Source of the DNA: Kiritimatiellia bacterium
GTDB taxonomy: Bacteria; Verrucomicrobiota; Kiritimatiellia; JAAZAB01
NCBI GenBank assembly: GCA_040767085.1
Contig: JAXGPF010000007.1
Location: forward strand, 160,001 to 224,000
Length of the DNA: 64,000 nt
Reading direction: 5' to 3'
A program made the translations under genes and the position numbers. Positions within the stretch are counted from its first letter, which is position 1. The number at the start of each line of letters is the position of its first letter. This document shows positions 23,924 through 56,746 of this stretch, one piece after another. The notes beneath the pieces were generated by a model. That model was not told where the DNA came from. It saw only the letters and a program-made list of their open reading frames with translations, and ran no database searches.

Positions 23924-25438
23924 ATGAGAAGCAGGAATGTGTCTTGCCGTATTTGTATAGGTTTGTTTGCCTGCATTTTGCACTTCTTGCAGGGCTTTAT
24001 GCCGTGCGATGGAGCGACGACGTACTATGTGGCCGGCACAAACGGGGACGACAGCGCGGACGGCACGAACTGGCCAACGGCGTTGCGCACGATCTCCAAT
24101 GCCGTCCTGAAGGCGCAGGCGGGGGACGAGGTCCGGCTGTCCACCGGCGAGCATTTCATTACCGACACATTTGTGCATGTGAAGAATGACATAACAATCC
24201 GCGGCGACACTGGAAACAGGGAAGACGTGATCGTAAACGGCAACTACCCCACCACACGAAATCGCTGTTTTTATATGACCGCCGGGACTATCGCGGATCT
24301 GACCATCACCAACGGCTACGGTCAGACCGACGCAACGTACATAACAAAATGGCATTACGGAGGCGGCGTGTACATGTTGGGCGGCACGCTTCGGAATTGC
24401 CTGATCACCGGGAATATATCCAGCAACCGGGCCGGCGGCGTGTACATGAGAGCCGACGGCGCCCTCATGACAAACTGCACTCTCTCCGGCAATTATCTCG
24501 TTTATAGCGGTGAAGGAGGCGCGGTGTACATGGAAAAGGGAAGGATAGTTGATTGCGTGATCAGCAACAACAATACCGCCGGGAATGGAGGCGGCGTTTA
24601 CCAAATGGCCGGAACGATCGAAAACAGCGATCTTGTGTGGAACACGGCAGACAAAGGCGCCGGCCTGTATCAGACAGGAGGGCTTGTGACCAATTGCCTG
24701 ATTGCGTTCAACAGCAACGTTAATGGCCTCTACCATGGCGGCGGAGGCGTTTACATGACGGCAGGCACCGTCGCGGCCTGTCGTGTTATCGGCAACAACG
24801 CGGGCGCGAACGGTCCGGGCGGAGGCATCAGCTTGCGGGCTGGAAAGGGCCAGATGGTGCATGATTGCTGGATCATCAGCAATACAGCAGCCACTTTCGG
24901 GGGCGGTGTTGCGTTGCATGCGAATACGGACGGGCAGGTCAGAAACTGCCTTATTGCGGGAAACACGGCCACCAATGGAACGGGAAGCGGCCTGGGTGGC
25001 GGAGTTTACACCGAGGTAATTACGGGCGCCGTCGTGAATTGCACGATCGTCGACAATAAGGGCGACACCGGCGGCGGGATGTACTGCAAAACGTCCGGAA
25101 ACATTCTGAACTCCGTGATCTACTTCAACACCGTGTCCAGCGAGACCAGCCCCAACTGGTTCAACAACGGATCGGGAATGCTTTATACCAATTGTTGCAC
25201 AACGCCTTTGACCGGACTGCCCGGCTCCGGCAACGTTGAGGGCGACCCGCGGTTCGCCGACCCGGCGGCAGGCAACTACCACCTTTCGGCCGGCTCTTCG
25301 TGCATCAACGCCGGGTTTTACCAGGAGTGGATGGCCACCGGCCGCGATCTGGACGGCAAACCGCGGCTGAACGCGGGCTTCGTGGACATCGGAGCGTATG
25401 AATACATCGCGAGCGGCACGATAATCAGAATAAAGTGA
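23924..25438 (+). CDS. Secreted parallel beta-helix (pectin-lyase fold) protein with choice-of-anchor-Q-like C-terminal domain
   Basis: AGGAGGAGG RBS, signal peptide, repeated GGGVY/NC.I.GN units, DPRF.D....NYHL..GS.CINAG...DLDG.PR....VDIGAYE, ends GTIIRIK. Confidence 0.88.
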   Translation: MRSRNVSCRICIGLFACILHFLQGFMPCDGATTYYVAGTNGDDSADGTNWPTALRTISNAVLKAQAGDEVRLSTGEHFITDTFVHVKNDITIRGDTGNREDVIVNGNYPTTRNRCFYMTAGTIADLTITNGYGQTDATYITKWHYGGGVYMLGGTLRNCLITGNISSNRAGGVYMRADGALMTNCTLSGNYLVYSGEGGAVYMEKGRIVDCVISNNNTAGNGGGVYQMAGTIENSDLVWNTADKGAGLYQTGGLVTNCLIAFNSNVNGLYHGGGGVYMTAGTVAACRVIGNNAGANGPGGGISLRAGKGQMVHDCWIISNTAATFGGGVALHANTDGQVRNCLIAGNTATNGTGSGLGGGVYTEVITGAVVNCTIVDNKGDTGGGMYCKTSGNILNSVIYFNTVSSETSPNWFNNGSGMLYTNCCTTPLTGLPGSGNVEGDPRFADPAAGNYHLSAGSSCINAGFYQEWMATGRDLDGKPRLNAGFVDIGAYEYIASGTIIRIK

Positions 25439-25575
25439 GTTTTGCGTAACTGAGGAGATGCCGGCCGCCGCGGCGCTGCTTGGCCTCGAAACGCTTCGGA
25501 GCGAAGGAGGCTACGCCGCGATTCCCGGCGCTGCAAAAGAGCGGCCAATGGCCGAGAAGAAAGGAACGCTGGACG

Positions 25576-26934
25576 ATGAGATTTCCGAAAAACTTCGTCT
25601 GGGGCGCGGCGGCGGCGAGCTACCAGGTTGAGGGCGCGGCGCGCGAGGACGGCAAGGGACTTTCCGTCTGGGACATGATGTGCCGCCAGCCCGGCAAAAT
25701 ATGGGAGGGCAACACGGGTGACGTCTCGTGCGATCACTACCACCATTATCGCGCCGACGCGCGGCTGATGGGCCGGTTGGGCCTCATGGCCTACCGCTTC
25801 TCCATCTCCTGGCCGCGCGTCATTCCCGGGGGCAAGGGCGCAGTGAACGCCAAGGGGCTGGATTTCTACGACCGGCTCGTGGACGCGCTCCTCGCCCACA
25901 AGGTTCAGCCGTGGGTCACGCTTTTTCACTGGGACTATCCGTACGAGCTCTTCTGCCGCGGCGGCTGGCTCAACCGGGACAGCGCTGACTGGTTTGCCGA
26001 CTATACGCGGGTCGTGGTGGAGCGGCTGGGCGATCGGGTGAAGCATTGGATGACGCAGAACGAGCCGCAATGCTACATCGGCTGCGGCCACGTCACCGGC
26101 GAGCACGCCCCCGGTCTGCGGATGGGCGTCGCGGAAATATTGAGGATGATTCATCATTCTCTGCTGGCGCACGGCCGGGCCGTGCAGGTTATTCGCGCGT
26201 GCGCCGCCGCCCGGCCGATGGTCGGCGCGGCGCCGGTGGGAATCGTGATGATCCCCGCGTCAGGAACCGGCGCCGACATCGCCGCCGCCAGGAAAGCGAT
26301 GTTCAGCGTGGGCAAGGACATCACGTGGTCCAACGCCTGGTACATCGATCCGATGATCCAGGGGCGTTACCCGGAAGACGGCATGAAGACTTTCGGACCG
26401 CGCCTGGCCGCCGTGAAATCCGGCGACATGGAAACGATTCGTCAGCCGCTCGATTTCTTCGGCTTCAATGTTTACCATGGGAACACCGTGCGCGCCTCCA
26501 GAGCGAGCCCGGCGGGATGGGAAAAGGTTGCGAGCGGGAACGGCCCCGCGCTGACGACCATGACGTGGAAAATCACGCCCGAGTGCCTCTACTGGGGTGC
26601 GCGCTTCTTCCACGAGCGCTACAAACTGCCGGTGGTCATTACGGAAAACGGCATGGCGAATTGCGACTGGGTGCATCTGGACGGCAAAGTCCACGATCCG
26701 CAGCGGATCGACTATTTGCGCAGGCACCTCCGCGAGCTTGGCCGGGCGATTCAGGACGGAGTCCCCGTGCTCGGCTACATGCAATGGTCCTTGATGGACA
26801 ACTTCGAATGGGCGCACGGCTATAAACAGCGCTTCGGCCTGATCTACGTGGACTATCAGACCGGCAAACGCATACCGAAAGAATCCGCGTTCTGGTACAG
26901 GGATGTCATCAAATCCAACGGCGTAAAGATATGA
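25576..26934 (+). CDS. GH1 beta-glucosidase
   Basis: FPKNFVWGAAAASYQVEG, YRFSISWPR, TLFHWD, NEP, ITENG, WSLMDNFEW. Confidence 0.96.
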   Translation: MRFPKNFVWGAAAASYQVEGAAREDGKGLSVWDMMCRQPGKIWEGNTGDVSCDHYHHYRADARLMGRLGLMAYRFSISWPRVIPGGKGAVNAKGLDFYDRLVDALLAHKVQPWVTLFHWDYPYELFCRGGWLNRDSADWFADYTRVVVERLGDRVKHWMTQNEPQCYIGCGHVTGEHAPGLRMGVAEILRMIHHSLLAHGRAVQVIRACAAARPMVGAAPVGIVMIPASGTGADIAAARKAMFSVGKDITWSNAWYIDPMIQGRYPEDGMKTFGPRLAAVKSGDMETIRQPLDFFGFNVYHGNTVRASRASPAGWEKVASGNGPALTTMTWKITPECLYWGARFFHERYKLPVVITENGMANCDWVHLDGKVHDPQRIDYLRRHLRELGRAIQDGVPVLGYMQWSLMDNFEWAHGYKQRFGLIYVDYQTGKRIPKESAFWYRDVIKSNGVKI

Positions 26935-26981
26935 CCTGACGCCGGTTGATCAGGTTCGGCGTCCGAACGGGAGCGCGGCAG

Positions 26982-27830
26982 ATGAAGATGAAACAAGCAA
27001 GAAGACAACGAATGAAATTCCCACGCTTTTTCAGCGCGCCGGCCTGTTCGGCCATGCTTCTATCGGCTGCGATCCTGCTCCCGCTCGCGCCATCGGCGCG
27101 GGCGGAAGATCCGAACCCGCTGCAAATCGCCGTGCTGGATGTGCAGTGGCAAACAACGCCTCTGACGAACCGCCTGGGAAAACTGAAGATCGGCTCCGAC
27201 TGTCTGACCAAGGAGGAGTTGTTTCAGGAAAAGCGCCTCTTCCTGTATGACATGTTCGTAATCCCATCCAACGGCACGCTGGACCAGGAGCAATACGATG
27301 CCGTCAAAACGTTCGTTTCGAAGGGCGGGGTGTTTGTCCCCTTCGACCTGGGCGGCACGGTCATGGACATTGATCGCAACGGGAAAGTGTCCCTGCCGCC
27401 GGACCTCATCGTCTCCTCGAAGGGAAAAATTTTTTACGAGCTTACCGGGGGCGAGCGGCTGGGGGCGCATTGGAAGATTGCCGGATTCAGCATACTGAAC
27501 GCGTGCCCCATCACCCAGGGCTTTGCCGCGGGCGAGCGGCTGGTGTTTACGAATGCGACGGGCGCGTGGGCGCAGAACTCCGCGCCGGGAACCATCGTCT
27601 GCTGCGGGGATGCGACGATCATGTCGCGTGCCGACGGCAGCGAGCGTTCCCGGCAGGGACAGGCGATTCAGGTGAAGAAGTACGGCAAAGGCGCGGGCAT
27701 TTGGATTGCCGTTGGCCTGCACAGCATTTCCGGCGAACCCGCGGATCGCCTGCTCACGAACATTTTTACCCGCAAGACGCTGGACTGGTGCCGCCGGTTG
27801 CCCGACCAGCCTGGTTTACGATCGAACTGA
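26982..27830 (+). CDS. Secreted hypothetical protein, class I glutamine amidotransferase-like fold
   Basis: Signal peptide ending ARA, YDMFVIP, FVSKGGVFV, KKYGKG; start uncertain (26982 or 27012). Confidence 0.7.
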   Translation: MKMKQARRQRMKFPRFFSAPACSAMLLSAAILLPLAPSARAEDPNPLQIAVLDVQWQTTPLTNRLGKLKIGSDCLTKEELFQEKRLFLYDMFVIPSNGTLDQEQYDAVKTFVSKGGVFVPFDLGGTVMDIDRNGKVSLPPDLIVSSKGKIFYELTGGERLGAHWKIAGFSILNACPITQGFAAGERLVFTNATGAWAQNSAPGTIVCCGDATIMSRADGSERSRQGQAIQVKKYGKGAGIWIAVGLHSISGEPADRLLTNIFTRKTLDWCRRLPDQPGLRSN

Positions 27831-28050
27831 CGCGGTCCGCAAAAGCGCTTTGGACCGCGGCAGCCGGCCCGCCTGCGCCAAGCCGACGGGAGGGCAGCGG
27901 CGTATAATGCCGCAACTACAGGGGCGGAATTTGGACTGCGGCGGCTGGACGCCGCTTTCATCCGGCGGGGCAGGAGCAGAAACCGCAGAACACCAGAAGG
28001 CGCGGAACCATGCATAGGAAGAGATTTGTAGCCGCGCCCGGCGATTGCCT
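27831..28050. repeat. Intergenic mosaic of degenerate REP-like palindromes
   Basis: CGCGGTCC..GGACCGCG hairpin, CCCGCCTGCGCCAAGCCGACGG, GCGGCGTATAATGCCGCAACTACA, TGGACTGCGGCGGCTGGACGCCGCTTT. Confidence 0.6.
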
Positions 28051-28055
28051 GCGAT

Positions 28056-29144
28056 TCAACGGCGTTTTCCCCGCGCCGGGAGGGTAAGATCGCGGACGCT
28101 ACTCCGCTCAATCAGCACGGGCGCGAACTGGCGGCGGATTCGCAGCGGGTTCCCTGCCAGCCATTCGTTTACGACCCTCGCCAGCGCGCGGCCGATGTCG
28201 GAGAGCGGCTGCCGGATTGATGTCAGCGGCACGGGCAGAAACGGATTGTATAAGCGATCGTCGTAGCCGATCAGGCTCACATCATCCGGCACGGTGATGC
28301 CGGCGTGCAGCAGTTCATCGTAAACCAATTGAGCATGCCTGTCCGTCAGCGCGGCGACCGCGGTATACGCAGGGCCCCGGCGCAGCGAATTCCGAACCAC
28401 TTGGTGCAGGCTGACCGCGCCGTCCGCCAGGGGGCGCAATTCGACGAGTTTGACGCCGCGTTGGCGCGCGGCCTGAGAGATGCCCCTGATCCGTAAAGCC
28501 ATTTCGTCGCCGGGCAAAGCGCCTTTGGCGGGCGTAGCGGGAAAGACGCCCACGCTCCGGTGTCCGTTCAGGGCGAGGTGCTCCATCATCCGCCGCCCGC
28601 CAAGCTCATTATTGGTGCAGACATACTGGCCGGCGGCTGTCACCCGATTCAACATGATGGTCCGGAATCCGTTTTTCTGCAAATCGGCAAGCACCGTATC
28701 ATCGAAAGCGCCATCCACAATGAGAAGATCCACCTTGTCACGCCGATAAACCTCGGGCGCAATGTAGTCCTGAAAATAAAAACTTGTGGCCACCGACGAG
28801 TCGACGAATTCCTTGAAGTTGTGAAAGACGGTCTCGAAGAACCAGTTGTCCCACCGCTGGATCACGAGGAGAAAGCCGACGCGCTTGGCTGCCGGCGGGA
28901 GTTGACGGGAGGTCGTGTCCGGGCGCCGGACAGCCACAAATGTTCCCCTGCCCTGTCTTCGCGTCAGCACGCCGCGTTTTTCGAGGGCCGCCAGCGCTCT
29001 GCGAACGGTGATCCGGCTCACCTCGTGACGTCCTGACAACTCCCGCTCCGAAGGAAGGCATACGTTCGGAGGATATAGCCCTGCCACGATCTCCTGGAGC
29101 AGGATGTCGATCAGCCGCTCCGTTTTACTCTCAATCCGGACCAT
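28056..29144 (-). CDS. GntR-HTH / LacI sensor-domain (AraR-like) regulator
   Basis: LPSERELS...VSRITVRRAL..L...G.L.R.QGRGTFV plus VPDDVSLIGYDD...LTSIRQP. Confidence 0.93.
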   Translation of the reverse strand: MVRIESKTERLIDILLQEIVAGLYPPNVCLPSERELSGRHEVSRITVRRALAALEKRGVLTRRQGRGTFVAVRRPDTTSRQLPPAAKRVGFLLVIQRWDNWFFETVFHNFKEFVDSSVATSFYFQDYIAPEVYRRDKVDLLIVDGAFDDTVLADLQKNGFRTIMLNRVTAAGQYVCTNNELGGRRMMEHLALNGHRSVGVFPATPAKGALPGDEMALRIRGISQAARQRGVKLVELRPLADGAVSLHQVVRNSLRRGPAYTAVAALTDRHAQLVYDELLHAGITVPDDVSLIGYDDRLYNPFLPVPLTSIRQPLSDIGRALARVVNEWLAGNPLRIRRQFAPVLIERSSVRDLTLPARGKRR

Positions 29145-29217
29145 GATTCTCCTTCAATGCTGCTCTGGTGTCATCATAATTCCAGTCAAGCGCAACCATG
29201 TTGACGAAGCGGCGGGG

Positions 29218-30117
29218 TCAGGCTTCCGCCCACAGGGACCGGATCGCATCACGGGAGACCAGCAGCGGATCTGTCTGGCCCGCATCGCTGATATCCGCGG
29301 CATAGTTGCGCGACATGGCATCCAGGCACACTTCAATGGTAAACTTGCCCTTGAATCCGACCTGCTTCAGCGCTCGGAAAAGGGATCGTAAATCCAGGTT
29401 GCCGTAGCCGAGATGCCTGTGTTCGTCCGCCAGGCCCCGATTATCGCTGAAGTGGACTTCCAGCACCTCAAAAGGCAGCCTGCAAACGTATGCGCCTATT
29501 TCGGTTTCGCCCTCGACCCCGCCGCTGCGCACATGAATGTTTGCATGGCCGGCATCAAGCAACATGCCGACTCCGGGCGCGCAAAGACTCTTGAAGCGCG
29601 TGAAATTGTCCAACGTGCGATATGCGCCCGGACCGCCATGGCTGTTTTCCAATCCGACTTTTATGCTCAACCCGCGCAACCCCGCCTCCAGCATGTCAAT
29701 AAAACCGCGGTTCGCTTCGTAGTCGAAATGCCGGATATGCTCCTGGCCTGGCAGAACAAGAGGATCCGAACAGCAGGAGTGCACGCCGTTGGTATTTTCA
29801 TGCCACCAGATGACGTTGTCGATCATTGCCCGGACAAAATCGGCATCCGGCTTTCCGTCCTTTATTCGGGTTTGCGGAACGTTGCCGTGGTATGTCACGT
29901 AAAATCCGGATGATTTGATGGCCGCGGCCGCATCCTCTCTTTCCTTGGGTTTGCAGTCCATCACGTATTGCAGGAGCGAAACACCCTGAAAACCGTTCCG
30001 GATCAGCCACTCGATTCGGTCTGCAAGTTTGCCGCCCTTGAGAAGCCATTGCGCCACGCCGATCGGTGGAAGGCCGTCATCGGGACTGTTTGCTTTGCTT
30101 GTCATTGCGTCAGTCAT
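29218..30117 (-). CDS. Sugar phosphate isomerase/epimerase (xylose isomerase-like TIM barrel)
   Basis: GLEN, LLDAGHA, VHFSDN, HRHLGYG.LD, FTIE metal ligands. Confidence 0.85.
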   Translation of the reverse strand: MTDAMTSKANSPDDGLPPIGVAQWLLKGGKLADRIEWLIRNGFQGVSLLQYVMDCKPKEREDAAAAIKSSGFYVTYHGNVPQTRIKDGKPDADFVRAMIDNVIWWHENTNGVHSCCSDPLVLPGQEHIRHFDYEANRGFIDMLEAGLRGLSIKVGLENSHGGPGAYRTLDNFTRFKSLCAPGVGMLLDAGHANIHVRSGGVEGETEIGAYVCRLPFEVLEVHFSDNRGLADEHRHLGYGNLDLRSLFRALKQVGFKGKFTIEVCLDAMSRNYAADISDAGQTDPLLVSRDAIRSLWAEA

Positions 30118-30926
30118 CCGTGGAGGTCGGGCGTCAAGGCGAAAGGCATGATGTGCTCACGGGTCAGGTTCAATGCCCGCGCGAAAGACATCAGCTCCGG
30201 CAATTTTTTCTGCGACTCGGGGTCGTGGGCATCGGTGCCGAAAGTGAATTTACAGCCCGCTTTCTTGGCGATGGACAGGAAGCGAATGGGGGTCTCAATG
30301 GAGAAGGCGGCTACGCGCGGAGAGGGCAGAAAGGACGCATTCACTTCGATGCCGACTCCCGCTCCGGCGGCAAGGCTGAACAGGTCAAAGAACTCGTCGT
30401 CTGAAATGGCGGACAGGACGGCATCGAACCGGTCCATGTACCCGAGCAACAGGAACGGATGCGCGATGACCGTGGCGATTCCGCTCGTGACGGCGGCGCG
30501 GAAAAACCGGGTGGCGAGCGCCGCAATATCGCGGGGTGCGGGGCTTGCCGGCCGTTCGGCGAACTTGAAATGGAAATGGCTGCACGCCAGGAGCACGAAA
30601 TCCAGTTCGCGGGCGAATTCCGGCGTCAGCCCCACTTGGCCGGGAGCAATCATGTCGGCTTCGCACCCTACAAGGACCCGCACAGGGGACGAAATCGAAG
30701 CGAGGTCAGCCCGCAGTCTGGATATCTGGTTCTGATCCTGCGGGCGATACCACTCCGGCGGCGGGATGTCCGGATTGACCCAGATGTGATCGGCAAACCC
30801 GATCGTCTCCACGCCCATGCTTTCGGCCAACTCGAGAATTGCGCCCGGCGTCTGGCGGTCTTTGGCTTTGCAACACGTCGAGAGGTATGTGTGGAGATGG
30901 AGATCATGGGTCAGCTTCATGTTCAT
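30114..30926 (-). CDS. PHP-domain phosphoesterase
   Basis: DLHLHT, GFADH, GCEAD, IAHP, IEVN, FGTDAH. Confidence 0.9.
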   Translation of the reverse strand: MNMKLTHDLHLHTYLSTCCKAKDRQTPGAILELAESMGVETIGFADHIWVNPDIPPPEWYRPQDQNQISRLRADLASISSPVRVLVGCEADMIAPGQVGLTPEFARELDFVLLACSHFHFKFAERPASPAPRDIAALATRFFRAAVTSGIATVIAHPFLLLGYMDRFDAVLSAISDDEFFDLFSLAAGAGVGIEVNASFLPSPRVAAFSIETPIRFLSIAKKAGCKFTFGTDAHDPESQKKLPELMSFARALNLTREHIMPFALTPDLHG

Positions 30927-31171
30927 GCGTAAAACCTATCAAAAATTACGGCGTTAAACGAGGCAAAATCGGATTGATTGGCTGAATTCCTATGGGACAG
31001 CCACGTGTCCAAAAAGGGGGTGCATAGTGGAATTAGACAAAAACACCGGAACTGAACTTCTGGAAACCAATGCATATTTATTAGGAAATAAAGGCTTTTT
31101 CAGGCCCGATATTCTTCCTGTGGGATGCAACTGTTTTCATATCATTGCATGCACATCCTTGTCCTATAAGG

Positions 31172-31214
31172 ATAGCGCATTGCGGTGTTTATGCAATGAA
31201 TTTTTAAGGCGGGG
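31172..31214. repeat. Degenerate 43-bp direct repeat, copy B
   Basis: ATAGCGCATTGCGGTGTTTATGCAATGAATTTTTAAGGCGGGG; matches 18629-18671. Confidence 0.75.
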
Positions 31215-31225
31215 CGTTTTCGCCG

Positions 31226-31254
31226 TTGACCGGATGCCGCCGGGATGTTAGGAT
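31226..31254 (+). promoter_or_regulatory. Sigma70-like promoter of tRNA-Pro
   Basis: TTGACC-17 nt-TAGGAT, 15 nt before the tRNA. Confidence 0.7.
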
Positions 31255-31269
31255 ACAGGTTTTGGATGT

Positions 31270-31346
31270 CGGGGCGTAGCGCAGACTGGTAGCGCGTTTG
31301 CTTGGGGTGCAAAAGGTCGCGGGTTCAAATCCCGCCGCTCCGACCA
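31270..31346 (+). tRNA. tRNA-Pro (GGG)
   Basis: CGGGGCG/CGCTCCG acceptor stem, TTTGC-TTGGGGT-GCAAA anticodon arm, GGTTCAAATCC, encoded CCA. Confidence 0.97.
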
Positions 31347-31612: not shown

Positions 31613-31639
31613 CTTCAGCGGGTGCAACCGCTCCGCCGG

Positions 31640-41151: not shown

Positions 41152-42813
41152 TTACCGCACGGTCATTATCGTGCCGGAATACATCCACTTGCCGGCGCCG
41201 CTATCCCAACCATCATAGGCGCCGCCCTGCCATACGTCGCTCTGTGAGGCGCAGTTGTCATAAGTGATCCCGGAAGGCGCCGTACGCACAGCGCGTCCGC
41301 CGTAGTCTTCCCTGCGAGTCGAGTCCCAGTAGGCGGTAAGCTCGCGGGACGAAACGCGCGTCCGCGTTGTGGCGCTGCCCCATCCTCCAGCGCGAGATCC
41401 CATGCCGTATGTGTCGGCGTTGGGCCAGTCCGGCAGATCCGAGTGGCCGTTGATATCCAAATTTCCATCGCCATGCGAACCCGTGAATTTCCGGCCGTTG
41501 GGGTGCCCAACCGTCAATGCGCGTTCAAAAACATTGCCGCTGAGTTCCATGATCCCCCAGTAACTGGCGCCCGCGCTTATACGGCTGGCGCCCGGCTTGG
41601 CCGCAAAAATACCCGCGCGCAAAACCCCGCCGGGGCCTGCCGTTCCCGTAATATTCAGATTGCCGTTCGTGTAATATTCGAATCCCGATCCGTCGTCGCC
41701 GACAAGCCCTGACATGTCGGTGGAGGTGGTTGTGCCATGCGCGTACTCGTCCGCCAGCGGCGCCTGCAGCCCGCGGCAGGCTTTTTCAAATTCCAGTTCC
41801 GTCATCGGCCGCAACGCCATCCAGTCCAGGATGGCGCATAGATCCGCCATGGAAATATAGTTGCAGGCGCGGTTGGGAGTGGCTGTTGCATATACACGGG
41901 GATACGGATCGCCTGGATCTGCGATCAATTGCACTGTGTTGCGGGCTTTGATCGTCGCACTGCCGCCCACGGTGTCAGCCATGTAGTAGTTCAGGTTGGT
42001 TGCGGTGCAGCGCATCCCCTGCTGGCGGCGGGTTAGCGTATTGAGGAAATCGGCGTATTGTCCCTGCGTGATCTCGTATTTCATGCAATAGAATGCCGCG
42101 TAACCCTTGGGAAAAGCGGCCGGGAGATTCGTGCTGACGGTATCGTTGAAATCGTCCCGTCTGGACGCGTTCATGCCTGTCGCATTATTGTTCCCGAGAC
42201 TGCCGGGCGCGCCGCCGCCGAGGGTGATTTCGTATGCCTCGTTGGTGATCGCAAACGGCAAACCGCTGGTGTCCGCCTCGAATTGGCCGTGCAGCGTGGC
42301 GCTGGTGCCGTCGCCCACGGTATTCGTCCCCTCCGCCACAAACACCATCTCCACGCCATATGCCTGCCACTCGGCATTCTGGACGTTTTCCATGCCGTTG
42401 GATGCAAAATTCCATACCGCCCTGACGTGCCGCGCGGCCGTGGTGCCGCTTCCATGCCCCGCGCGGCGTACGAATAGACCGCTCCGGTCTTCCGGGACGA
42501 TCAATTCGACCGGCGTCCCTGACCCGGCGGCGTAACCGTCGGGGTTGACTCCCGTGCCCTCCAGGATGACGTGCTGCCAGTTTGTCAGCGGAGCAGGCCG
42601 CACCTTGAAGAACACCCAAGCCGCGTCATGGTTGAAGTTCGTGTCGCGCCATGAATTTTCCCAGGCAATGTCGAAATGAATATAGACCGTGCTGCTGTCC
42701 CGTGCGGTCGCCTTCACGTTGGATATTTGCAGGTTATTCGCCTGAATATTGCCCGCTGCCAGCAAGCAGAGGGCCGCCGCACCCAGTCTCTGGAACCATG
42801 CTTGTTTGCGCAT
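41152..42813 (-). CDS. Secreted SUMF1/FGE-sulfatase-domain protein
   Basis: Signal peptide, NNLQISNV, FYCMKYEITQGQY..FLN, RPMTELEFEKACR, GIMELSGNVFE, GGRAVR; ends GTIMTVR. Confidence 0.85.
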   Translation of the reverse strand: MRKQAWFQRLGAAALCLLAAGNIQANNLQISNVKATARDSSTVYIHFDIAWENSWRDTNFNHDAAWVFFKVRPAPLTNWQHVILEGTGVNPDGYAAGSGTPVELIVPEDRSGLFVRRAGHGSGTTAARHVRAVWNFASNGMENVQNAEWQAYGVEMVFVAEGTNTVGDGTSATLHGQFEADTSGLPFAITNEAYEITLGGGAPGSLGNNNATGMNASRRDDFNDTVSTNLPAAFPKGYAAFYCMKYEITQGQYADFLNTLTRRQQGMRCTATNLNYYMADTVGGSATIKARNTVQLIADPGDPYPRVYATATPNRACNYISMADLCAILDWMALRPMTELEFEKACRGLQAPLADEYAHGTTTSTDMSGLVGDDGSGFEYYTNGNLNITGTAGPGGVLRAGIFAAKPGASRISAGASYWGIMELSGNVFERALTVGHPNGRKFTGSHGDGNLDINGHSDLPDWPNADTYGMGSRAGGWGSATTRTRVSSRELTAYWDSTRREDYGGRAVRTAPSGITYDNCASQSDVWQGGAYDGWDSGAGKWMYSGTIMTVR

Positions 42814-42986
42814 CTTGGCACCGCCTTTCCTGGTTTTTGTGACTTGCGACATAACGTATGGCTGTTATTGATTTAACACCCAAAATATATATAAATAATG
42901 CTGTTCGTAACAAGTCAAGTGTCCGCTTTTTGTAACAAGTGATCTGTCCGATTTGTTATTGTGTGTTGTTGCTCCTGGGGTGAGGA

Positions 42987-47098: not shown

Positions 47099-47102
47099 AT
47101 AT

Positions 47103-49249: not shown

Positions 49250-49406
49250 CCTGCGCCATCACATGGACCCGGATCGCGCCGGGCGACGGCGCCCGACATG
49301 CGTTTGCGCTAGCAAAGCGCCCGGCTATTGGCCCGGAAATCTGTTTGACAAACACGGTTATGGCGCATAACTTACCCGGCAGTCATGATCGTTAAAAGTC
49401 CGCCGG

Positions 49407-49428
49407 CCGGCAAATTATAATTTGCCGG
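49407..49428. promoter_or_regulatory. Perfect 22-bp palindrome containing TATAAT upstream of the ALDH gene
   Basis: CCGGCAAATTATAATTTGCCGG. Confidence 0.55.
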
Positions 49429-49458
49429 ATTCCAGGCCGTAACAGACCAGGAGCGCAT

Positions 49459-50916
49459 ATGCCGCAGAATCCCCCAAAAGACCAGGTTGCCCCCGAACAG
49501 GCAGCGGCCAATGCTGTAATGGAAAAGGCCCTGCTGGCGGCCGCCGAGTTCAATCAACTGGATCAGGCGGCCACCGATCGCATCGTCGAGGCGGTCTTCA
49601 AGGCCGCCTTTGACGCCCGGGTCAGCCTGGCCAAAATGGCGTTTGAAGAGACCAAGCTGGGCATCTGGAAGCACAAAGTCTTGAAAAACGTGCTGGCCAG
49701 CAAGCTCGTTTACAACGACATCCGTTACGAAAAGACCGTCGGCATCCTCTCCCATGACGACCGGTCCGGGATCACCGAAATCGCCCAGCCGCTGGGCCCG
49801 ATTTTCGCCATCACGCCCATGACTAACCCGACATCCACGGTGATCTTCAAAATCCTGATCTGCCTGAAATCCCGCAACCCGGTCATCATCAGCCCGCACC
49901 GCCGCGCGGCCAAGTGCTCGGGCGAAGCCGCCCGCATCTGCTACGAGGCCGCCCTGGCGGCCGGCGCCCCGGAAGATTGCGTGCAATGGCTCTCCGGCGG
50001 CTCGCGCGAGCTGACCCGCGCGTTCATGACCCACCCCAACCTGGCGTTGATCCTGGCCACGGGCGGCACCGGCCTGGTCTCAGCCGCCTACAGTTCCGGC
50101 ACTCCCGCCATTGGCGTCGGCCCGGGCAACGTGCCGGTGTTGATTGACAAGTCCGCGGATTTTCCCTTTGCCGTTTCCAGCATCATCATTTCCAAGACTT
50201 TCGACAACGGCACAGTCTGCGCCAGCGAGCAGGCCATCGTCGTGGAACAGGCCATCGCGGCGGAAGTCCGCGCCGAATGCGAACGGCAGAAATGCCATTT
50301 CCTGAATGCCGCGGAAATCAAGCAAGTCGAACGGGTGGCCATCGATCCCAGGACCGGCGGCATGAGCGCCGATATTGTCGGCCAGTCGGCCATGGAAATC
50401 GGGAGGCGGGCCGGCATCAACCTGCCGCCGGATACCCAGATCATCATGGCGCCGCTCAGCCGGGTGGGCGCTGACGAGCCGTTGTCGGGCGAAGTGCTGG
50501 CGCCCATCCTGGCGTTTTATGTGGAAAAAAATTACACGGACGCCTGCAAGCGCTGCATCGCGCTCAATTACCGCGGCGGCGTCGGACATACCGCCAGCAT
50601 CTTCGCCAACGACGAGGCGCGCATCCTGGAATTCAGCGAGCTGATGAACGCCGGGCGCGTGGTGGTCAACACCCCCTCCTCCCAGGGCGGCGTGGGCGGC
50701 TTGTTCAACACGCTCCTGACCAGTTTCACTTTGGGCTGCGGCAGCGGCGGCAAAAACATCACCACGGAAAACATTTCCGCGCGCCACCTGATCAACATTA
50801 AAAAACTCTGCCGGCGCCGGCCGCATCCGCGCTGGGGTTTCTTCGATCTGAACAAGTATTACGATGAAACCCAGACGGCGGACACACTCTACGCCGAATT
50901 CAACCGCAACTTTTAA
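49459..50916 (+). CDS. CoA-acylating aldehyde dehydrogenase (stand-alone AdhE N-terminal-like)
   Basis: ITPMTNPTST, LILATGG, GVGPGN, SKTFDNGTVCASEQ, EVLAP, GHT, TLGCGS.G.N. Confidence 0.92.
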   Translation: MPQNPPKDQVAPEQAAANAVMEKALLAAAEFNQLDQAATDRIVEAVFKAAFDARVSLAKMAFEETKLGIWKHKVLKNVLASKLVYNDIRYEKTVGILSHDDRSGITEIAQPLGPIFAITPMTNPTSTVIFKILICLKSRNPVIISPHRRAAKCSGEAARICYEAALAAGAPEDCVQWLSGGSRELTRAFMTHPNLALILATGGTGLVSAAYSSGTPAIGVGPGNVPVLIDKSADFPFAVSSIIISKTFDNGTVCASEQAIVVEQAIAAEVRAECERQKCHFLNAAEIKQVERVAIDPRTGGMSADIVGQSAMEIGRRAGINLPPDTQIIMAPLSRVGADEPLSGEVLAPILAFYVEKNYTDACKRCIALNYRGGVGHTASIFANDEARILEFSELMNAGRVVVNTPSSQGGVGGLFNTLLTSFTLGCGSGGKNITTENISARHLINIKKLCRRRPHPRWGFFDLNKYYDETQTADTLYAEFNRNF

Positions 50917-50940
50917 TCGCGCGCCAACCAAGGAAAGATC

Positions 50941-51255
50941 ATGCTGAACATCAACTTCGATCCGGAAACCCGCACCCACGTCTGCCAGTTCACCGGCAAG
51001 ATCACCAGCGCGGCCTGCCCCCCGCTGGCCGCCGAAATCGAAGCTAAAATCCGTGAAATCCAGGACGGCCGGCATAACGAGAAGGTGGCCTTCGACCTGG
51101 CCGGGGTGGATTTCATCGCTTCCGCCTTCCTGCGCATCTGCATGCTGGCGGCCCGGCAAATGCCCCCGGGGCATTTCATCATCGTCAACAGCCAGCCGGC
51201 GGTGCAGAAAATTTTCTCCATCGCCGGACTGGACGGCCTGACGGACACCCACTAA
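50941..51255 (+). CDS. STAS-domain protein (anti-anti-sigma factor-like)
   Basis: FDLAGVDFIASAFLR, VQKIFSIAGLD. Confidence 0.88.
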   Translation: MLNINFDPETRTHVCQFTGKITSAACPPLAAEIEAKIREIQDGRHNEKVAFDLAGVDFIASAFLRICMLAARQMPPGHFIIVNSQPAVQKIFSIAGLDGLTDTH

Positions 51256-51329
51256 ACCGTTCCGTTTCGGCATGATATTCCGCTGCATGGGACAGGCATT
51301 CTGGCGCAGTTAAGCCGGACAAGTTAATC

Positions 51330-51530
51330 TCATAAAGACACTAAGCCGCGAAGGGTGAGTGGATTGCGGATGCTGAAGGCAAACAAGGTTTTCCTGCTTG
51401 GTTTTTTCTTGGCGCCTTGGTGGCTTCGTGCGATAATATTTTTTCGTGTGCAGGTAAATAATCTGCGCAGATCCGCGTCATCCGTGGATAAAAATGATCC
51501 GCAGATGACACAGGTGCACCCAGATGAGAT
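51330..51530. repeat. Degenerate short-unit inverted repeats (CACAGAT / CACTAAG types)
   Basis: ATAAAGACACTAAG vs CTTGGCGCCTTGGTGGCTTCGTG; ATCTGCGCAGATCCGCGTCATCCGTGGAT vs ATCCGCAGATGACACAGGTGCACCCAGAT. Confidence 0.6.
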
Positions 51531-51585
51531 GAACAGCTTAATCAGGTTGCGGGCGTAGCCCGCGAAAAGACCTGAAGGATTTACT

Positions 51586-54045
51586 ATGAAAATGCTTGTT
51601 ATCGGGGGAGTGGCGGCGGGGATGTCGGCGGCGGCGCGCGCGCGGCGGCTGGACGAAACGGCATCCATCATTGTTTTCGAACGCGGCGATTTCGTTTCAT
51701 TCGCCAACTGCGGCCTGCCTTACCACATCGGCGGCAAGATTGCCGACCGCGACCAACTGCTCCTGCAGACGCCGCAAAGCCTGGCCGCCACGCTGAATCT
51801 TGACGTGCGGACCGGAACCGAAGTCGAGGCAATTGACCGCGCCGCCCGGCAGGTGCGCGTGCGCGAACTGGCCGCCGGCAAAACCTACACGGAAACGTAT
51901 GATAAACTAGTCCTGGCGCCCGGCGCCGCGCCGCTGCGGCCGCCGCTGCCCGGGATTGACCACCCGCGCATTTGCGTGCTGCGCAATATCGCCGACATGG
52001 ATCGCATCCAGAAGCTGCTGGAAGAGGGCGCCAAGGCGGCGGTAGTGATCGGCGGCGGCTACATCGGCGTGGAAATGGCGGAAAACCTGCGGGAACGCGG
52101 GCTGGCGGTGGACCTGGTGGAAATGGTGGACCAGGTGATGCCGCCGCTCGACCGCGAAATGGCGCGGCCGCTGGAAAACCACCTGCGCTGGCACGGCGTG
52201 AATCTGCACCTGGGCGTGGCCGCCGCCGCCTTCACGGAAAGCGAAGGACGCCTGCGCACGGAACTGGTTAACGGCCAAATGCTCATGGCCGACCTGGTGA
52301 TTTTATCCGCCGGCGTCAAGCCGGACCTCCGGCTGGCGCGGGCCGCCGGCCTGGCCATCGGCCCGCGCGGCGGCATCCAGGTGGACCAGCACATGCGGAC
52401 CAATGACCCGCACATTTACGCCGCCGGCGATGCGGTGGAAGTCACCGACCTGGCGCTCTGCTGCCCCACCCTGCTCCCGCTGGCCGGGCCGGCCAACCGG
52501 CAGGGCCGGATTGCGGGTGAAAACGTCTGCGGACGCCATACGGTTTATACCGCCACGCAGGGCACGGCCATCGTCAAAGTTTTCGAGATGACCGGGGGCG
52601 GCACGGGCGCCAATGAAAAATCGCTCCAGCGCGCCGGCATAAATTACCGCAAAATCTATCTGCACCCCTCCGGCCATGCCGGCTACTACCCCGGCAGCGC
52701 GCCGATGAACATGAAGGTCCTGTTCGCGCCGGGCGACGGCAAACTGCTGGGCGCGCAGGTGGTGGGATACGACGGCGTGGACAAGCGCCTCGACGTCCTG
52801 GCCACGGCCATCCGCGCCGGCCTGCAAGTCCATGACCTGGAATCCCTGGAACTGGCTTACGCCCCGCCTTACGGCTCGGCCAAGGATCCGGTCAACATGG
52901 CCGGCTTCATTGGAACTAACCTGCTGCATGGCGACCTGGAACTCTGGTACCCGGAGGAGTATCCCGACCAGACCAGAAACGCGGTGCTCCTGGACGTGCG
53001 GTCGGCGATGGAATACGACACCTGGCATATTCCCGGGGCGGTCAATATCCCGCTGGATAAGCTGCGCGGCAATCTCGACCGCCTGCCGCGCGGGCAGACC
53101 ATCCTGGTGTACTGCAAGGTCGGCTTCCGCAGCTACCTGGCTTACCGCCTTTTGAAACAGCGCGGGTACGACGTCAAGACGCTGTCGGGCGGGACGATGA
53201 CGTTCTGCAACTATCACCGCACGGGCATCTGCCCGGGCACCCCTGAGCCGCCGCTGCTGTCATACGCCGAAGAGCGCCAGTTGGCCCCGGCCGCCGCCCC
53301 GCCCGTCCCGGGCCGGGTGGTGGAGTTGAACTGCGCCGGGATGCAATGCCCGGGCCCCATCCGCCGCCTGGCGGAGACCATGCAGGGCTTGCAGACGGGC
53401 GACGAACTAATAGTGAGCGCTTCCGACCCCGGCTTTACCGCCGACGGCGCCGCCTGGTGCCGCCACTTCGGACACACGCTCGTGAGCCAGGAGCAGGCGG
53501 GCCCCCTGGTGCGGCTGCGCATCCGCAAGGGCGGGCCGATGCAGCCGGCCGCAGCGGCAAACTCCGACAAGCCGGCGGGCGCCGGCAAACCGCGCAAGAC
53601 CATGGTGGTTTTTTCCGGGGACCTCGACAAGGTGCTGGCCGCCTTCGTCATCGCCAACGGCGCGGTCAGCATGGGCAGCGAGGTGGTGATGTTTTTCACC
53701 TTCTGGGGCATCAACGCCCTGCGCCGCTCGGGGCCGCAGGCGCCGGGCAAGACCCTGTTGGATCGAATCTTCGGCTGGATGATGCCGCAAGGCGCTGCCG
53801 CGCTACGCCTGTCCCAGATGCACATGGGCGCTTTAATGCGCCGGGTAATGCGCGCCAAGCAAGTGGATTCGCTGCCCGGCATGATCGCCCAGGCGCAGGC
53901 CGCCGGCGTCAAGCTGGTGGTCTGTTCCATGTCCATGGACGTCATGGGGCTTAAGCGCGAAGAATTGATTGACGGCCTGGAAATCGGCGGCGTCGCCGCA
54001 TTTCTGGGGGAATCCGCCGGGGCGGACATGACGCTTTTCATTTAA
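51586..54045 (+). CDS. CoA-disulfide/persulfide reductase fused to rhodanese, TusA/SirA and DsrE2 domains
   Basis: GGVAAG, SFANCGLPY, GGGYIG, YAAGD, YAPPY; rhodanese LDVR..E...HIPGA..YCKVGFRS; TusA GMQCPGP; DsrE FFTFWG...CSMSMD. Confidence 0.93.
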   Translation: MKMLVIGGVAAGMSAAARARRLDETASIIVFERGDFVSFANCGLPYHIGGKIADRDQLLLQTPQSLAATLNLDVRTGTEVEAIDRAARQVRVRELAAGKTYTETYDKLVLAPGAAPLRPPLPGIDHPRICVLRNIADMDRIQKLLEEGAKAAVVIGGGYIGVEMAENLRERGLAVDLVEMVDQVMPPLDREMARPLENHLRWHGVNLHLGVAAAAFTESEGRLRTELVNGQMLMADLVILSAGVKPDLRLARAAGLAIGPRGGIQVDQHMRTNDPHIYAAGDAVEVTDLALCCPTLLPLAGPANRQGRIAGENVCGRHTVYTATQGTAIVKVFEMTGGGTGANEKSLQRAGINYRKIYLHPSGHAGYYPGSAPMNMKVLFAPGDGKLLGAQVVGYDGVDKRLDVLATAIRAGLQVHDLESLELAYAPPYGSAKDPVNMAGFIGTNLLHGDLELWYPEEYPDQTRNAVLLDVRSAMEYDTWHIPGAVNIPLDKLRGNLDRLPRGQTILVYCKVGFRSYLAYRLLKQRGYDVKTLSGGTMTFCNYHRTGICPGTPEPPLLSYAEERQLAPAAAPPVPGRVVELNCAGMQCPGPIRRLAETMQGLQTGDELIVSASDPGFTADGAAWCRHFGHTLVSQEQAGPLVRLRIRKGGPMQPAAAANSDKPAGAGKPRKTMVVFSGDLDKVLAAFVIANGAVSMGSEVVMFFTFWGINALRRSGPQAPGKTLLDRIFGWMMPQGAAALRLSQMHMGALMRRVMRAKQVDSLPGMIAQAQAAGVKLVVCSMSMDVMGLKREELIDGLEIGGVAAFLGESAGADMTLFI

Positions 54046-54134
54046 CAGCGTTCAGGTGGTCAGATTGACGCCCGTGCGGGCATGGAAGGGATGCGCAGAG
54101 GCCGTAGCGTCCCATTCGGCGATACAAGGCGCCT

Positions 54135-56114
54135 TCATGCCGTCGGGAACACTCCCCGCGACACGCGCGCGCGGGCCGGGCGGCGGAATCGCCGGGCTTC
54201 CCGCCGGATGGCCGCTTCCAGCGCCCGGCATTTGGCCGCGGTATATGGCTGCCCTGCGCCATCCACCGGATTCAACAAGGTGACAGCCCCGGCGGGCAGG
54301 GCGGCCAAGGCGGCGACATCGCCCCAGCGCAGGATGCCGGGCACATGGATGGCCATGGATTTGCCGCTGCGGGCGCCCTGGTACAGGTAAGAGCCCTGCA
54401 AGTTCACGCAGGTGACGGACTGTATCCGGCGATTGAAGGCGGCGGCGCACAAGGCCGCCAGCCCGGCTTCGCCGTAAGCGCGGATTTCCAGGCGGGCGCG
54501 CGGGTAAATTCCGGCAACCGCCCGCGCGAGCGCCTGGATATCGCAAACCCAATCGCCGAGCATGGTGCGCCCCAGCCAGAAACAGGCGCGCGCATGGTCA
54601 TGGTAACTCTGTTCGCCCAGTTGGCTCAAGTTGTAGCAGGTTTCACCGGTCCCGCGCAAATCCGCAAACACCAGCGCCGGGGCACGGCGGCCGCCGCCGG
54701 CGGTCCAGGCATCATCCGCCAGCGCGGCTTTGCCGTGCGGATGCAGCACCAGCGCCACGGTTTTGATCGGCCCGGCGGCTGGCGGAGTGACAAGCGCCGA
54801 CGGCAGCAGGATATTCGGCTCCGACTCCACCGCGAATTTGCGGATGCAACGTCCGGCTTCCTCCACCGTCCCGAATTCGACCGGCGCGGCAGCCGCCGGA
54901 GAACGCGGGCGCAGCAATGCCTGCAATTGGCGCAGTTTGACCGCGCGGCTGACGGCGATCCGATCAGCGCCGGCCAGCAACCGCCGGCCCGCGATGCGGC
55001 AATATTCGGGAATGGAGACCACCGAAGGCGGACGGCGGCCGGACGGGAAACACAGGCACCGCTCCTCGGGCAGCGTTTGGAATGCGGGCAAATCGCAAGG
55101 CCGGCCTTCGCCCTCGTCCTTCAGCCAGCGTTTGAACCAGCCCAGCATGCAGCGCTGCATTTCCGGCCAGTAGCCATGGGGCCTGTCAAAAACCTGGTAG
55201 GCCAGCCTGTCTTCCGCGCCGTACAGGCGGTAAACCCGGCTGGCGGCGCTGAAGGAACGCAGCATCTCCGGCACGCAGAAGGCAGGGCCGTCGCGCAGTG
55301 CGTTCAAAAGCAGCAGGGCGTTGGGCGCAACCAGGCCGAGCGCCGCCCATTCCTCCATGAAGGTCAAACCGTTCGGCAATACTTCACACACGCAGTTAGA
55401 GCGGGTGACATATGATTCGAACGTCCCCACCGACACCACCGGCACGGCCGCCTTGATCCGCGGGTCGGCCGCCGCCAGCCACATGGTCTGGTTGCCGCCG
55501 CCGGAGGCGCCGGTCACGCCGATGCGATCGGCATTCACGTTCGGCATGGACTGCAAAAGGTCAATGCCGCGCATATTGTCGTAAAGCTGCATACCCAGCA
55601 GGGTTTCGCCAAGATCAAAGAGCCCGGCGCCGATGCCGGCCCCATGGTATTCATATTTCCCGGGGATGGAGCTGCGTTCGCCGGCGCCGAATGCGTCAAT
55701 CGCCAGCACGACGAATCCGTTCAAGGCGAGCAGGTGTCCGCGTTCCTGCACGCGGCCGGCGATTTTGCCTTGGGCATGATGACCATGGACGCCGATAATC
55801 CCCGGGAATGGCCCCGGGCCGTCCGGCACGTATAAATTGGCGGTGACCCGCATGCCCGGGCGGCTTTGATAGGTAATTTTGCGGAGTTCGTAGCCCGACA
55901 GCCGGATCACGCCATGCACCTGCGGTTCCAGCGCCGGCGGCGGGGGAAATGTGCCGGCATTGGAACGGATGGCGGACAGCAAGGCGCGGCGTTGCGCGCG
56001 CCATTGCGGCAGAGTCAAAGGCGGCTGGCGCCGCCAATGCCATTGACGGGCTTCGCCGATTTGATGATCTTTGACCAGTTCCAACGGTTTTTCCTGCCAG
56101 ACGTCCAGATTCAT
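54135..56114 (-). CDS. Alpha/beta hydrolase (acetylxylan esterase-like, duplicated domain)
   Basis: VTANLYVP, GHH..GK, RIGVTGASGGG nucleophile elbow, PHGY; degenerate second domain DLRGTGE. Confidence 0.85.
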   Translation of the reverse strand: MNLDVWQEKPLELVKDHQIGEARQWHWRRQPPLTLPQWRAQRRALLSAIRSNAGTFPPPPALEPQVHGVIRLSGYELRKITYQSRPGMRVTANLYVPDGPGPFPGIIGVHGHHAQGKIAGRVQERGHLLALNGFVVLAIDAFGAGERSSIPGKYEYHGAGIGAGLFDLGETLLGMQLYDNMRGIDLLQSMPNVNADRIGVTGASGGGNQTMWLAAADPRIKAAVPVVSVGTFESYVTRSNCVCEVLPNGLTFMEEWAALGLVAPNALLLLNALRDGPAFCVPEMLRSFSAASRVYRLYGAEDRLAYQVFDRPHGYWPEMQRCMLGWFKRWLKDEGEGRPCDLPAFQTLPEERCLCFPSGRRPPSVVSIPEYCRIAGRRLLAGADRIAVSRAVKLRQLQALLRPRSPAAAAPVEFGTVEEAGRCIRKFAVESEPNILLPSALVTPPAAGPIKTVALVLHPHGKAALADDAWTAGGGRRAPALVFADLRGTGETCYNLSQLGEQSYHDHARACFWLGRTMLGDWVCDIQALARAVAGIYPRARLEIRAYGEAGLAALCAAAFNRRIQSVTCVNLQGSYLYQGARSGKSMAIHVPGILRWGDVAALAALPAGAVTLLNPVDGAGQPYTAAKCRALEAAIRREARRFRRPARARVSRGVFPTA

Positions 56115-56123
56115 GTTGTTGGT

Positions 56124-56198
56124 TCCAGGATTAGGGGTTCAGGATTCGGTGTTCTGACATAACACTTTAAAACCTCAAACCTTAAAACTTCCAAAACG
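56124..56198. repeat. Degenerate opposed heptamer tandem repeats
   Basis: TCCAGGA TTAGGGG TTCAGGA TTCGGTG followed by TAAAACC TCAAACC TTAAAAC. Confidence 0.5.
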
Positions 56199-56314
56199 TG
56201 AGTTTTAAAATTGGCGCGCGCGCATCCCATAGAAAATAAAAAGTGTTGGAATAATCCCCGGCGTCATAACATAATGACGGGCGACCAAGCCAAACCGAAA
56301 GGATCATTCCAACG

Positions 56315-56464
56315 ATGATCAAATACACCATGTTGAAGCAGGTCTGCAATCTTTATCCTGGATTGCGCAGGATTATTCCGCCGCATTTGGTAAAGCGCCT
56401 GGCACAGGAACACGGTGTTGATAAAAAGAGCAGGACATTCACGACTGGCGGCAATTTTATTTGA
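56315..56464 (+). pseudogene. IS4-family transposase N-terminal (DUF4372-like) fragment
   Basis: MIKYTMLKQVCNL[YPGLRRI]IPPHLVKRLAQEHGVDKKSRTF, truncated; AAAGGA RBS overlaps an upstream hairpin. Confidence 0.65.
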
Positions 56465-56746
56465 TAATATACATGGTGCCCACCGTCACAAACTCGTAGC
56501 ACCCCATATCCGCCAACCGGCTAAACCGGTCAAGCCGCGAATGCCCGTCCAAATCCAAAGCGTCCGGCATCCACGCCTGGTTTGTTCCGGTGTTCACACA
56601 CGGGGAAGCCGCCCCAAGCCGGTAATTACCGGAAATAAAATTCACAAACTGCGGATCATAATTTATATTATTTAATCCATAATTTTCTGGCGGCGCAGGC
56701 GCCATGCATGAGTTGGATACGGATGACATTGTCGCGGGCGCAGATA
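56457..56746 (-). pseudogene. Detached 3' end of the beta-helix gene (choice-of-anchor-Q-like domain)
   Basis: DPQFVN...NYRL...SPCVNTG...DLDG.SR....ADMGCYEFVTVGTMYIIK*; continues the 57669-59201 protein across the 88-bp repeat. Confidence 0.85.
56659..56746. repeat. 88-bp perfect direct repeat, copy 1
   Basis: TAATTTATATTATTTAATCC...GCGGGCGCAGATA, identical to 57676-57763. Confidence 0.95.

Follow-up and report, generated by a model that had tools for sequence, protein, structure and literature searches.

A conserved seven-residue C-terminal tail as a candidate lineage-specific tag of exported proteins in Kiritimatiellia

Here we report a seven-residue C-terminal tail that closes three genes in a 64,000-nucleotide stretch of a Kiritimatiellia bacterium genome (GenBank assembly GCA_040767085.1, contig JAXGPF010000007.1, positions 160,001 to 224,000; hereafter the window) and that looks like an uncatalogued address or docking label on about 70 exported proteins of the same genome. 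The tail follows the consensus (P)-x-G-[T>A,M,S,V]-h-h-x-h-[R>K,H,Q]-COOH, where h is a hydrophobic and x any residue, and we give an even chance to its being a lineage-specific modular tag that is read in trans for export or surface retention. A first-pass annotation of the window, made from the sequence alone, had proposed such a sorting signal on three secreted proteins. We followed the tail through the source genome and through other genomes of the class and phylum, and compared it with the C-terminal signals of known export systems.

By direct reading of the window, the three tails end as YEYIASGTIIRIK in a beta-helix protein (P0001), as WMYSGTIMTVR in a formylglycine-generating enzyme-like (FGE/SUMF1-like) protein (P0002), and as YEFVTVGTMYIIK (56457-56480, minus strand) in a further beta-helix paralog, and each is flush with a stop codon exactly where the first-pass annotation had placed it (Table 1). 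As that annotation also held, the tail is found on no cytoplasmic protein of the window, and only these three of its open reading frames (ORFs) end in the strict form of the motif. The description of all three as signal-peptide proteins stands for the two complete genes and fails for the third, which is a split gene whose 107-amino acid (aa) terminal ORF has no signal peptide of its own. The likely start of P0001, an ATG at 23924, provides a signal-peptide-like N-terminus, which is followed by Pmp-like GGxxY...N repeats; the public gene call for this locus, P0122 (479 aa), starts at an internal Met at 23999 and thereby loses the 25 residues that supply the signal peptide. The C-terminal part of P0001 matches the choice-of-anchor Q model NF041518 of NCBIfam (27.3 bits, cut-off 25, profile positions 16-57 of 58), and the match stops at YEY, 10 residues upstream of the stop; the terminal fragment of the split paralog scores slightly below the same cut-off (22.8 bits). 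P0002, which has MRKQAWFQRLGAAALCLLAAGNIQA, has no NF041518 match, and its assignment to Pfam PF03781 is weak (26.5 bits, cut-off 23.3, covering only profile positions 35-142 of 255). In a position-specific scoring matrix of the tail, P0002 scores 9.8 and is the top C-terminus in the genome outside the main tail-bearing family.

That family accounts for most of the tails in the assembly to which the window belongs (G000; 4.08 Mb, 61% GC, 95% complete), for which a simple caller based on ORFs and codon scores gave 2,904 genes. The strict motif closes 27 of its 16,777 ORFs that are 100 aa or longer, where the internal frequency of the motif would predict 1.16, and the looser form G-x-h-h-x-h-[R/K/H/Q]-stop ends 67 predicted genes. 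The core motif of the choice-of-anchor Q domain lies 13 or fewer residues from the end in 62 genes, in 59 of which exactly 11 residues follow it, and three or four more variants bring the family to about 66 members. The consensus of the 62 reads YEY-v-P-r-G-[T30, A11, M7, S5, V5]-[L/M/I]-[F41]-[mostly polar]-[L/V/I/F]-[R41, K9, H9, Q3], with the Gly of the tail kept in 58 of them, and nearly all family members start with a Sec-type signal peptide followed by TYYVATNG. The enrichment on signal-peptide proteins that the first-pass annotation suggested looking for is present: by a home-made, crude rule that over-calls (28% of all genes), N-termini resembling signal peptides occur in 53 of the 62 tail-bearing genes that reach 250 aa, versus 597 of 2,125 others. 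Besides P0002, the proteins outside the family that end in the tail are a 274-aa exported protein with no Pfam family (L002, PPPRGTVVILR), a protein with DUF2341 and Laminin_G_3 domains (L003, KGLIVKVR), a NosD-type helix (L005, PPAGSIMIVR) and, as a weak instance, an esterase (L004, EGSVFMSR).

The fixed spacing in this family, together with the choice-of-anchor Q domain carried by most tail proteins of G000 and of the likewise tail-rich genomes G008 and G060, would be expected if the tail were simply the last beta-strand of that domain. We find this highly improbable, and for the class as a whole it is already contradicted. The NF041518 model ends before the tail, and homologues of P0001 show that the domain can be followed by something else: the loose tail motif ends 52 of 120 homologues, about 25 of the 120 end instead in a domain of some 85 residues finishing in FYRVGVQ, and in three (P0209, P0214 and P0218) the GAYEF of the domain runs directly into VPEP, a hydrophobic stretch and basic residues, a PEP-CTERM-like ending as judged by eye. 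The VPEP of these three starts at the exact residue where VPRGT starts in the G000 proteins, and the spacing from YE to Gly is itself variable, from 4 to 6 residues depending on the lineage. The 85-residue ending, GP[F/W]FYRVGV[Q/E], is a candidate for another anchor domain at the same position, going by its sequence; it closes P0148, P0159, P0169 and other homologues, two of which are labelled Verrucomicrobiia or Verrucomicrobiota by their source, and it also occurs at the Kiritimatiellia loci L097, L105 and L110.

Structure models point the same way. AlphaFold2 predicts a beta-helix for P0122 (38 aligned sequences) with a mean predicted local distance difference test score (pLDDT) of 90.7, and gives the tail, residues 471-479, a mean of 49 and no secondary structure; for P0002 (35 aligned sequences; mean 81.0) the score falls below 50 at residues 533-537 and 541-566. 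The models thus leave the tail unpacked, which argues against an integral closing strand. A profile covering both domain and tail matched no PDB sequence at E up to 1. As had been described, the tail has no membrane helix, does not end in an aromatic residue and includes no domain of the size of known C-terminal sorting domains; it consists of only four or five hydrophobic residues and one R, K, H or Q before the stop.

A departure from a single fold is seen in relatives. We searched genomic DNA with the pattern G-T-h-h-x-h-R-stop, using the reversed pattern as control, and found 47 matches versus 2 in G023 and 39 versus 1 in G068, which represent two other families of the class. About 23 of the 47 and about 30 of the 39 (coordinates cross-checked by hand) have no preceding choice-of-anchor Q match. 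From the 53 regions fetched (one G023 match lying 78 nt from another was left out), 51 gave tail-ending ORFs of 100 aa or more, two short ORFs of 36 and 62 aa being dropped; one Arg-rich ORF of 143 aa among the 51 appears non-coding. For 24 of the 51, Pfam families could be named (E up to 1e-4), namely G8, Chlam_PMP, Beta_helix/DUF1565, PATR, PKD, Laminin_G_3, F5_F8_type_C, FG-GAP, PA14, fn3, Big_9 and Flg_new_2. This variety of unrelated domains argues that the tail is, as far as sequence tells, a module closing many kinds of surface-type exported proteins, and it is a further point against a closing strand of one domain.

P0002 provides the instance of modularity inside the window. The first-pass annotation had described its tail as following a linker appended past the domain end at RAVRTAP, and the relatives bear this out: 4,896 were found, and among those listed 116 of 120 stop at GGRAVRTAP(SGVGP) with no extension, while an extension of about 40 residues (GG-x-[Y/F]-DGW) plus the tail is present in the remaining four, P0002, P0011, P0083 and P0108. 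None of 74 FGE-like loci from other genomes carries this extension and tail. Most of these loci, including the relatives in other phyla that we considered as a possible record of exchange between alternative anchors, end at the domain, so this family offers no such evidence. The claim that the tail is not tied to one fold is thus upheld by P0002 and by the unrelated domains of G023 and G068. Confinement to one domain family, which the first-pass annotation had named as a result that would speak against its proposal, is nearly the case inside G000 and ceases to be so once relatives are included.

The coincidence in position with PEP-CTERM-like endings, and the fact that the tail resembles the first residues of many PEP-CTERM domains, raise the question of whether the tails are such anchors truncated after loss of exosortase and left with no present function. 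The family to which the window belongs fits this at first sight: the exosortase model PF09721 has no match in G000 or in the same-family genomes G001, G060 and G009, and the one match in G008, also of this family, is marginal and contains a stop. These profiles suggest that the exosortase/PEP-CTERM system was lost in the window's own family. Elsewhere in the class, exosortase is found over the cut-off in 20 of 24 genomes, including the tail-rich G023, G068 and five genomes of the family f38. Matches to the PEP-CTERM model PF07589 number 0 in G000, 5 in G023, 1 in G068, 7 in G127 and 6 in G018, so that G023, G068 and G127 keep exosortase and one to seven PEP-CTERM matches beside 32-47 tails. 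With neither PF09721 nor PF07589 matched in G000, an exosortase substrate is ruled out for the window's family. Since the tail coexists with the system elsewhere and persists in its own family with no detectable one, it is by these profile matches independent of exosortase, and therefore neither an exosortase substrate here nor a simple relic. A vestige would also hardly keep its exact length and invariant Gly in more than 60 paralogs and several families of the class, nor be a new addition to an FGE-like family otherwise devoid of anchors, and we give this explanation very little credit.

The tag was called lineage-specific in the first-pass annotation, and the wider sample agrees. Among 201 genomes sampled from the phylum, a clear excess of the DNA pattern over its control occurs only in the class Kiritimatiellia; besides G023 and G068 the counts are 15 versus 0 in G000, 15 versus 0 in G121, 32 versus 0 in G127, 22 versus 2 in G134, 33 versus 0 in G235, 10 versus 0 in G197, 11 versus 0 in G207 and 11 versus 3 in G238. 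The 134 genomes from other classes (Lentisphaeria perhaps not being one of these) show none, with at most 5 matches in any single genome; one tail-bearing homologue is labelled 'Lentisphaerae bacterium' by its source. By family and genus code, the tail-rich lineages are f1 (g1 and g5), f12, f37 and f38, and the tail-free ones f30, f16, f17 and f8. The profile of domain plus tail (A3) finds choice-of-anchor Q in 47 of 61 sampled genomes of the class and reaches the tail positions in only some of them. The DNA pattern under-counts, because it misses the form G-T-[I/V]-Y-G-[V/I/F]-R used by G008, and such dialects run through whole genomes. At position -3, G000 has polar residues (47 of 62), G008 has Gly (10 of 12), and both G023 (21 of 21) and G068 (22 of 29) have hydrophobic ones; at position -4, G000 has F, G008 has Y and G068 has I or M.

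In a sister family, represented by G018, 64 choice-of-anchor Q domains are accompanied by no excess of the tail (4 matches versus 1 control), which again speaks against a closing strand. Proteins of this genome (L094-L098, L220, L223, L225 and L226) end in GLPWLFLLLEP, GVPWQLLLLP, NLAWALLLLP or GLPWLFLLVQ. The pattern W-x-h-L-L-L-P-stop has 5 matches in G018, 4 of them with real stops, versus 1 in the control, and at most 1 in each of 23 other genomes. This lineage may, on the evidence of these endings, use a different ultrashort tail of the form PW-x-h-LLL-P.

Several points weigh against reading the tail as a modular tag recognized in trans. Of the roughly 70 carriers in G000, 62-66 (about 94%) belong to one secreted beta-helix/choice-of-anchor Q family with fixed spacing, and therefore the local evidence alone fits a family-specific end piece; shared descent of these paralogs also inflates both the signal-peptide enrichment and the G000 dialect. 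Some of the G023 and G068 carriers counted as having no choice-of-anchor Q domain end in remote look-alikes of it (L043 and L044, INLGAYGNT). In these two genomes the G, T and R were set by the DNA pattern, which also demanded NTN codons at positions -5, -4 and -2; left to observation were only the residue at position -3 and which of the hydrophobic residues is used. Low pLDDT is common at protein termini and is no proof of disorder. The genes next to the tail genes of G000 include no recurrent neighbour beyond GH20-like genes, regulators and transposases. Finally, no reader or processing protein was found, and three candidates failed in phyletic tests on 20-22 genomes chosen from tail-rich and tail-poor lineages.

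The three candidates were envelope proteins of the kind whose co-occurrence the first-pass annotation had suggested looking for, and none of them tracks the tail. A FadL-like outer-membrane protein, considered as an analogue of PorV and encoded once in G000, is present in 7 of 20 genomes and was not found in the tail-rich G068 or in four of five f38 genomes. G000 has six secretin-domain matches (contigs C4, C11, C23, C24, C27 and C28; L118-L123), and one of its secretins, of 994 aa with TPR repeats, lies in a PilM/pseudopilin operon (L124:13539-16520, minus strand); relatives of its N-terminal part occur in each of the 20 class genomes tested, tail-rich or tail-poor, and the protein is therefore uninformative as a reader candidate. 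An extra S41 tail-specific protease was likewise rejected, with S41 present in 22 of 22 genomes and no additional copy in the tail-rich ones. In G000, no TonB-dependent receptors were found, and none of its PDZ proteins lies in a secretin operon. No recurrent neighbour is common to the flanks of the 53 regions from G023 and G068. By elimination, secretin-type channels would be the only outer-membrane route detected in G000 for folded carriers.

The S41 result bears on another explanation, by which the tail would be a processing or quality-control signal, a pro-piece or degron read by a periplasmic PDZ protease of the S41 Ctp/Prc or HtrA type. G000 encodes two S41 peptidases and HtrA-like PDZ proteins, and PDZ proteases do bind free C-terminal strands. 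Their ligands, however, usually end in a hydrophobic residue, not in the Arg or Lys of the tail, S41 is ubiquitous regardless of tails with one copy only in the tail-rich family f38, and it is hard to see why some 70 abundant paralogs would carry a degron; we therefore consider such a role improbable.

Alternatively, the tail may have no part in export and act after secretion in the manner of a minimal dockerin: donated as a strand to a scaffold or to further tagged proteins, it would bring many enzymes and binding proteins together in a single complex at the surface. The dozens of carriers per genome, with their polysaccharide-type beta-helices and lectin-like and adhesin-like domains, the location of the G000 paralogs among GH20-like genes and AraC/LacI regulators, the appearance of the tail in the models as a free, aggregation-prone strand, and the genome-wide dialects, which fit a single shared partner, are all consistent with docking. 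However, no repeated acceptor protein or conserved neighbour was seen, and the present data do not separate a docking from a sorting role. We rate docking as unlikely, though worth keeping in mind.

Under the preferred reading, that of a tag recognized in trans, a carrier would be exported by Sec, lose its signal peptide and then fold in the periplasm, where a short and often Pro-rich linker would present the seven-residue tail as a free strand. An envelope protein could bind this strand in trans by beta-strand addition, reading its hydrophobic residues along with the basic side chain and free carboxylate at its end, and the binding would commit the cargo to passage through the outer membrane or hold it on the cell surface. 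The invariant Gly would perhaps be a hinge or a site of cleavage or attachment. A more specific and only tentative proposal is that an uncatalogued, exosortase-independent pathway reads this helix-less strand and passes or tethers dozens of proteins through or beyond the outer membrane; if true, the tail could serve a secretin-type (type II-like) route as a linear targeting signal, of the sort long sought for type II secretion.

Tags such as LPXTG, PEP-CTERM, GlyGly-CTERM and those of type IX secretion (T9SS) are used to annotate surface proteins, and from each of them a dedicated enzyme or machine has come to light. A helix-less tag of seven residues would be the smallest of its kind, and it marks up to about 70 proteins per genome in hardly cultured, polysaccharide-degrading bacteria. 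If it is a sorting or docking label, it would give a simple rule to predict the surface proteome of these bacteria, a handle on an envelope machine and possibly a tool for surface display; if it is a mere end piece, the pattern still serves annotation.

Table 1. Positions in the window of the tail-bearing genes, their domains and the insert in the split paralog.
Feature	Position	Strand	Basis
P0001, secreted Pmp-like right-handed beta-helix protein	23924..25438	+	ORF of 551 aa; AlphaFold2 on P0122
Choice-of-anchor Q domain of P0001, residues 498-541, ending DIGAYEY	25274..25405	+	NF041518
Tail GTIIRIK and stop of P0001	25415..25438	+	Direct reading; AlphaFold2 mean pLDDT 49
P0002, secreted FGE/SUMF1-like protein with N-terminal beta-sandwich domain	41152..42852	-	Pfam PF03781; AlphaFold2
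Appended linker of P0002, residues 527-559, containing GGAYDGW	41176..41274	-	Missing from most relatives; low pLDDT
Tail GTIMTVR and stop of P0002	41152..41175	-	Direct reading
C-terminal piece of split beta-helix paralog, choice-of-anchor Q-like, with tail GTMYIIK	56457..56780	-	ORF of 107 aa
Insert of 929 bp splitting the beta-helix paralog	56747..57675		No other copy in the assembly
N-terminal piece of split paralog, 510 aa, with signal peptide and beta-helix repeats	57669..59201	-	ORF reading

A perfect 88-nt direct repeat, made of gene sequence, lies on either side of the insert in the split paralog (56659-56746 and 57676-57763), and the last 29 residues of the N-terminal piece duplicate the beginning of the C-terminal piece. 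The insert could reflect some unusual insertion or duplication, or else an artefact of assembly.

Other C-terminal endings were noted in passing. A beta-lactamase-like protein of G000 (L008, C1:4087-6015) ends in another module, WFA[V/L]DYP[M/K]DG[V/I]L[N/D]L followed by V-x-V-[Q/E], which is common to several other exported proteins of the genome and is also found in the homologue P0232. Small DUF2341-LamG proteins from various metagenomes (P0243-P0250) have short hydrophobic tails of differing form about 15 residues past the domain, such as GLIILVR, IVPMFFIR, IIPLII, GTVGVLIF and FFPFF, and their longer relatives have a MotA/ExbB fusion in place of the short tail.

None of the existing Pfam and NCBIfam models run on the carriers recognises the tail, which answers the first-pass annotation's call to check for an existing model. 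A description of the seven-residue tail was not found in the literature searched, which included passages of PMC7356697.

Among known systems, autotransporters have the same passenger-type domains that precede the tail, such as the Pmp-like repeats of P0001 and the PATR and Chlam_PMP domains of relatives. They differ in the beta-barrel that follows: the G000 carriers end 10-11 residues past their last domain and the genome has a single Omp85 gene. A split autotransporter was also considered and rejected, the PF03797 barrel not being found in G000. The Omp85/beta-barrel assembly machinery (BAM) signal, G-x-x-hydrophobic-x-hydrophobic at the end of outer-membrane proteins, shares with the tail the G-x-x-h-x-h spacing and a terminal strand, which BAM reads by strand addition. 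Unlike it, the tail has an extra terminal basic residue and no aromatic, and its carriers are soluble beta-helices and beta-sandwiches, not barrels. A lineage-specific version of this signal was rejected, as BamA of G000 ends in FWLGYGF and its other barrel-like proteins in YRF or YLF, with Phe at the end throughout, and one Omp85 gene only is present.

The C-terminal domains (CTDs) of T9SS are, like the tail, signals on Sec-exported adhesins and enzymes that lack a membrane helix and are read outside the cytoplasm, and in other phyla they follow choice-of-anchor domains. They are, however, folded domains of 70-100 residues, represented by the models for type A (TIGR04183) and type B (TIGR04131/CHU_C), whereas the tail has 7-11 residues and is unstructured in models. 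SprA_N (PF14349) and PorP_SprF (PF11751) have no match in G000, but none in 14 control genomes either. A few terminal residues and a free carboxylate are also what receptors read when PapD-type chaperones bind the C-termini of pilus subunits, in PDZ ligands and in the PTS1/PEX5 pair; the tail differs in its basic end, and no homologous receptor was identified in this analysis.

PEP-CTERM, whose sorting signal also has the model TIGR02595, differs from the tail in having a membrane helix in place of four or five hydrophobic residues and a cluster of basic residues in place of one, and the tails read P-x-G-T with no PEP. Like the tail, PEP-CTERM signals stand strictly at the C-terminus of Sec-exported proteins with many carriers per genome, start at the same place after choice-of-anchor Q, and combine a Pro-containing motif with hydrophobic residues and a basic end.

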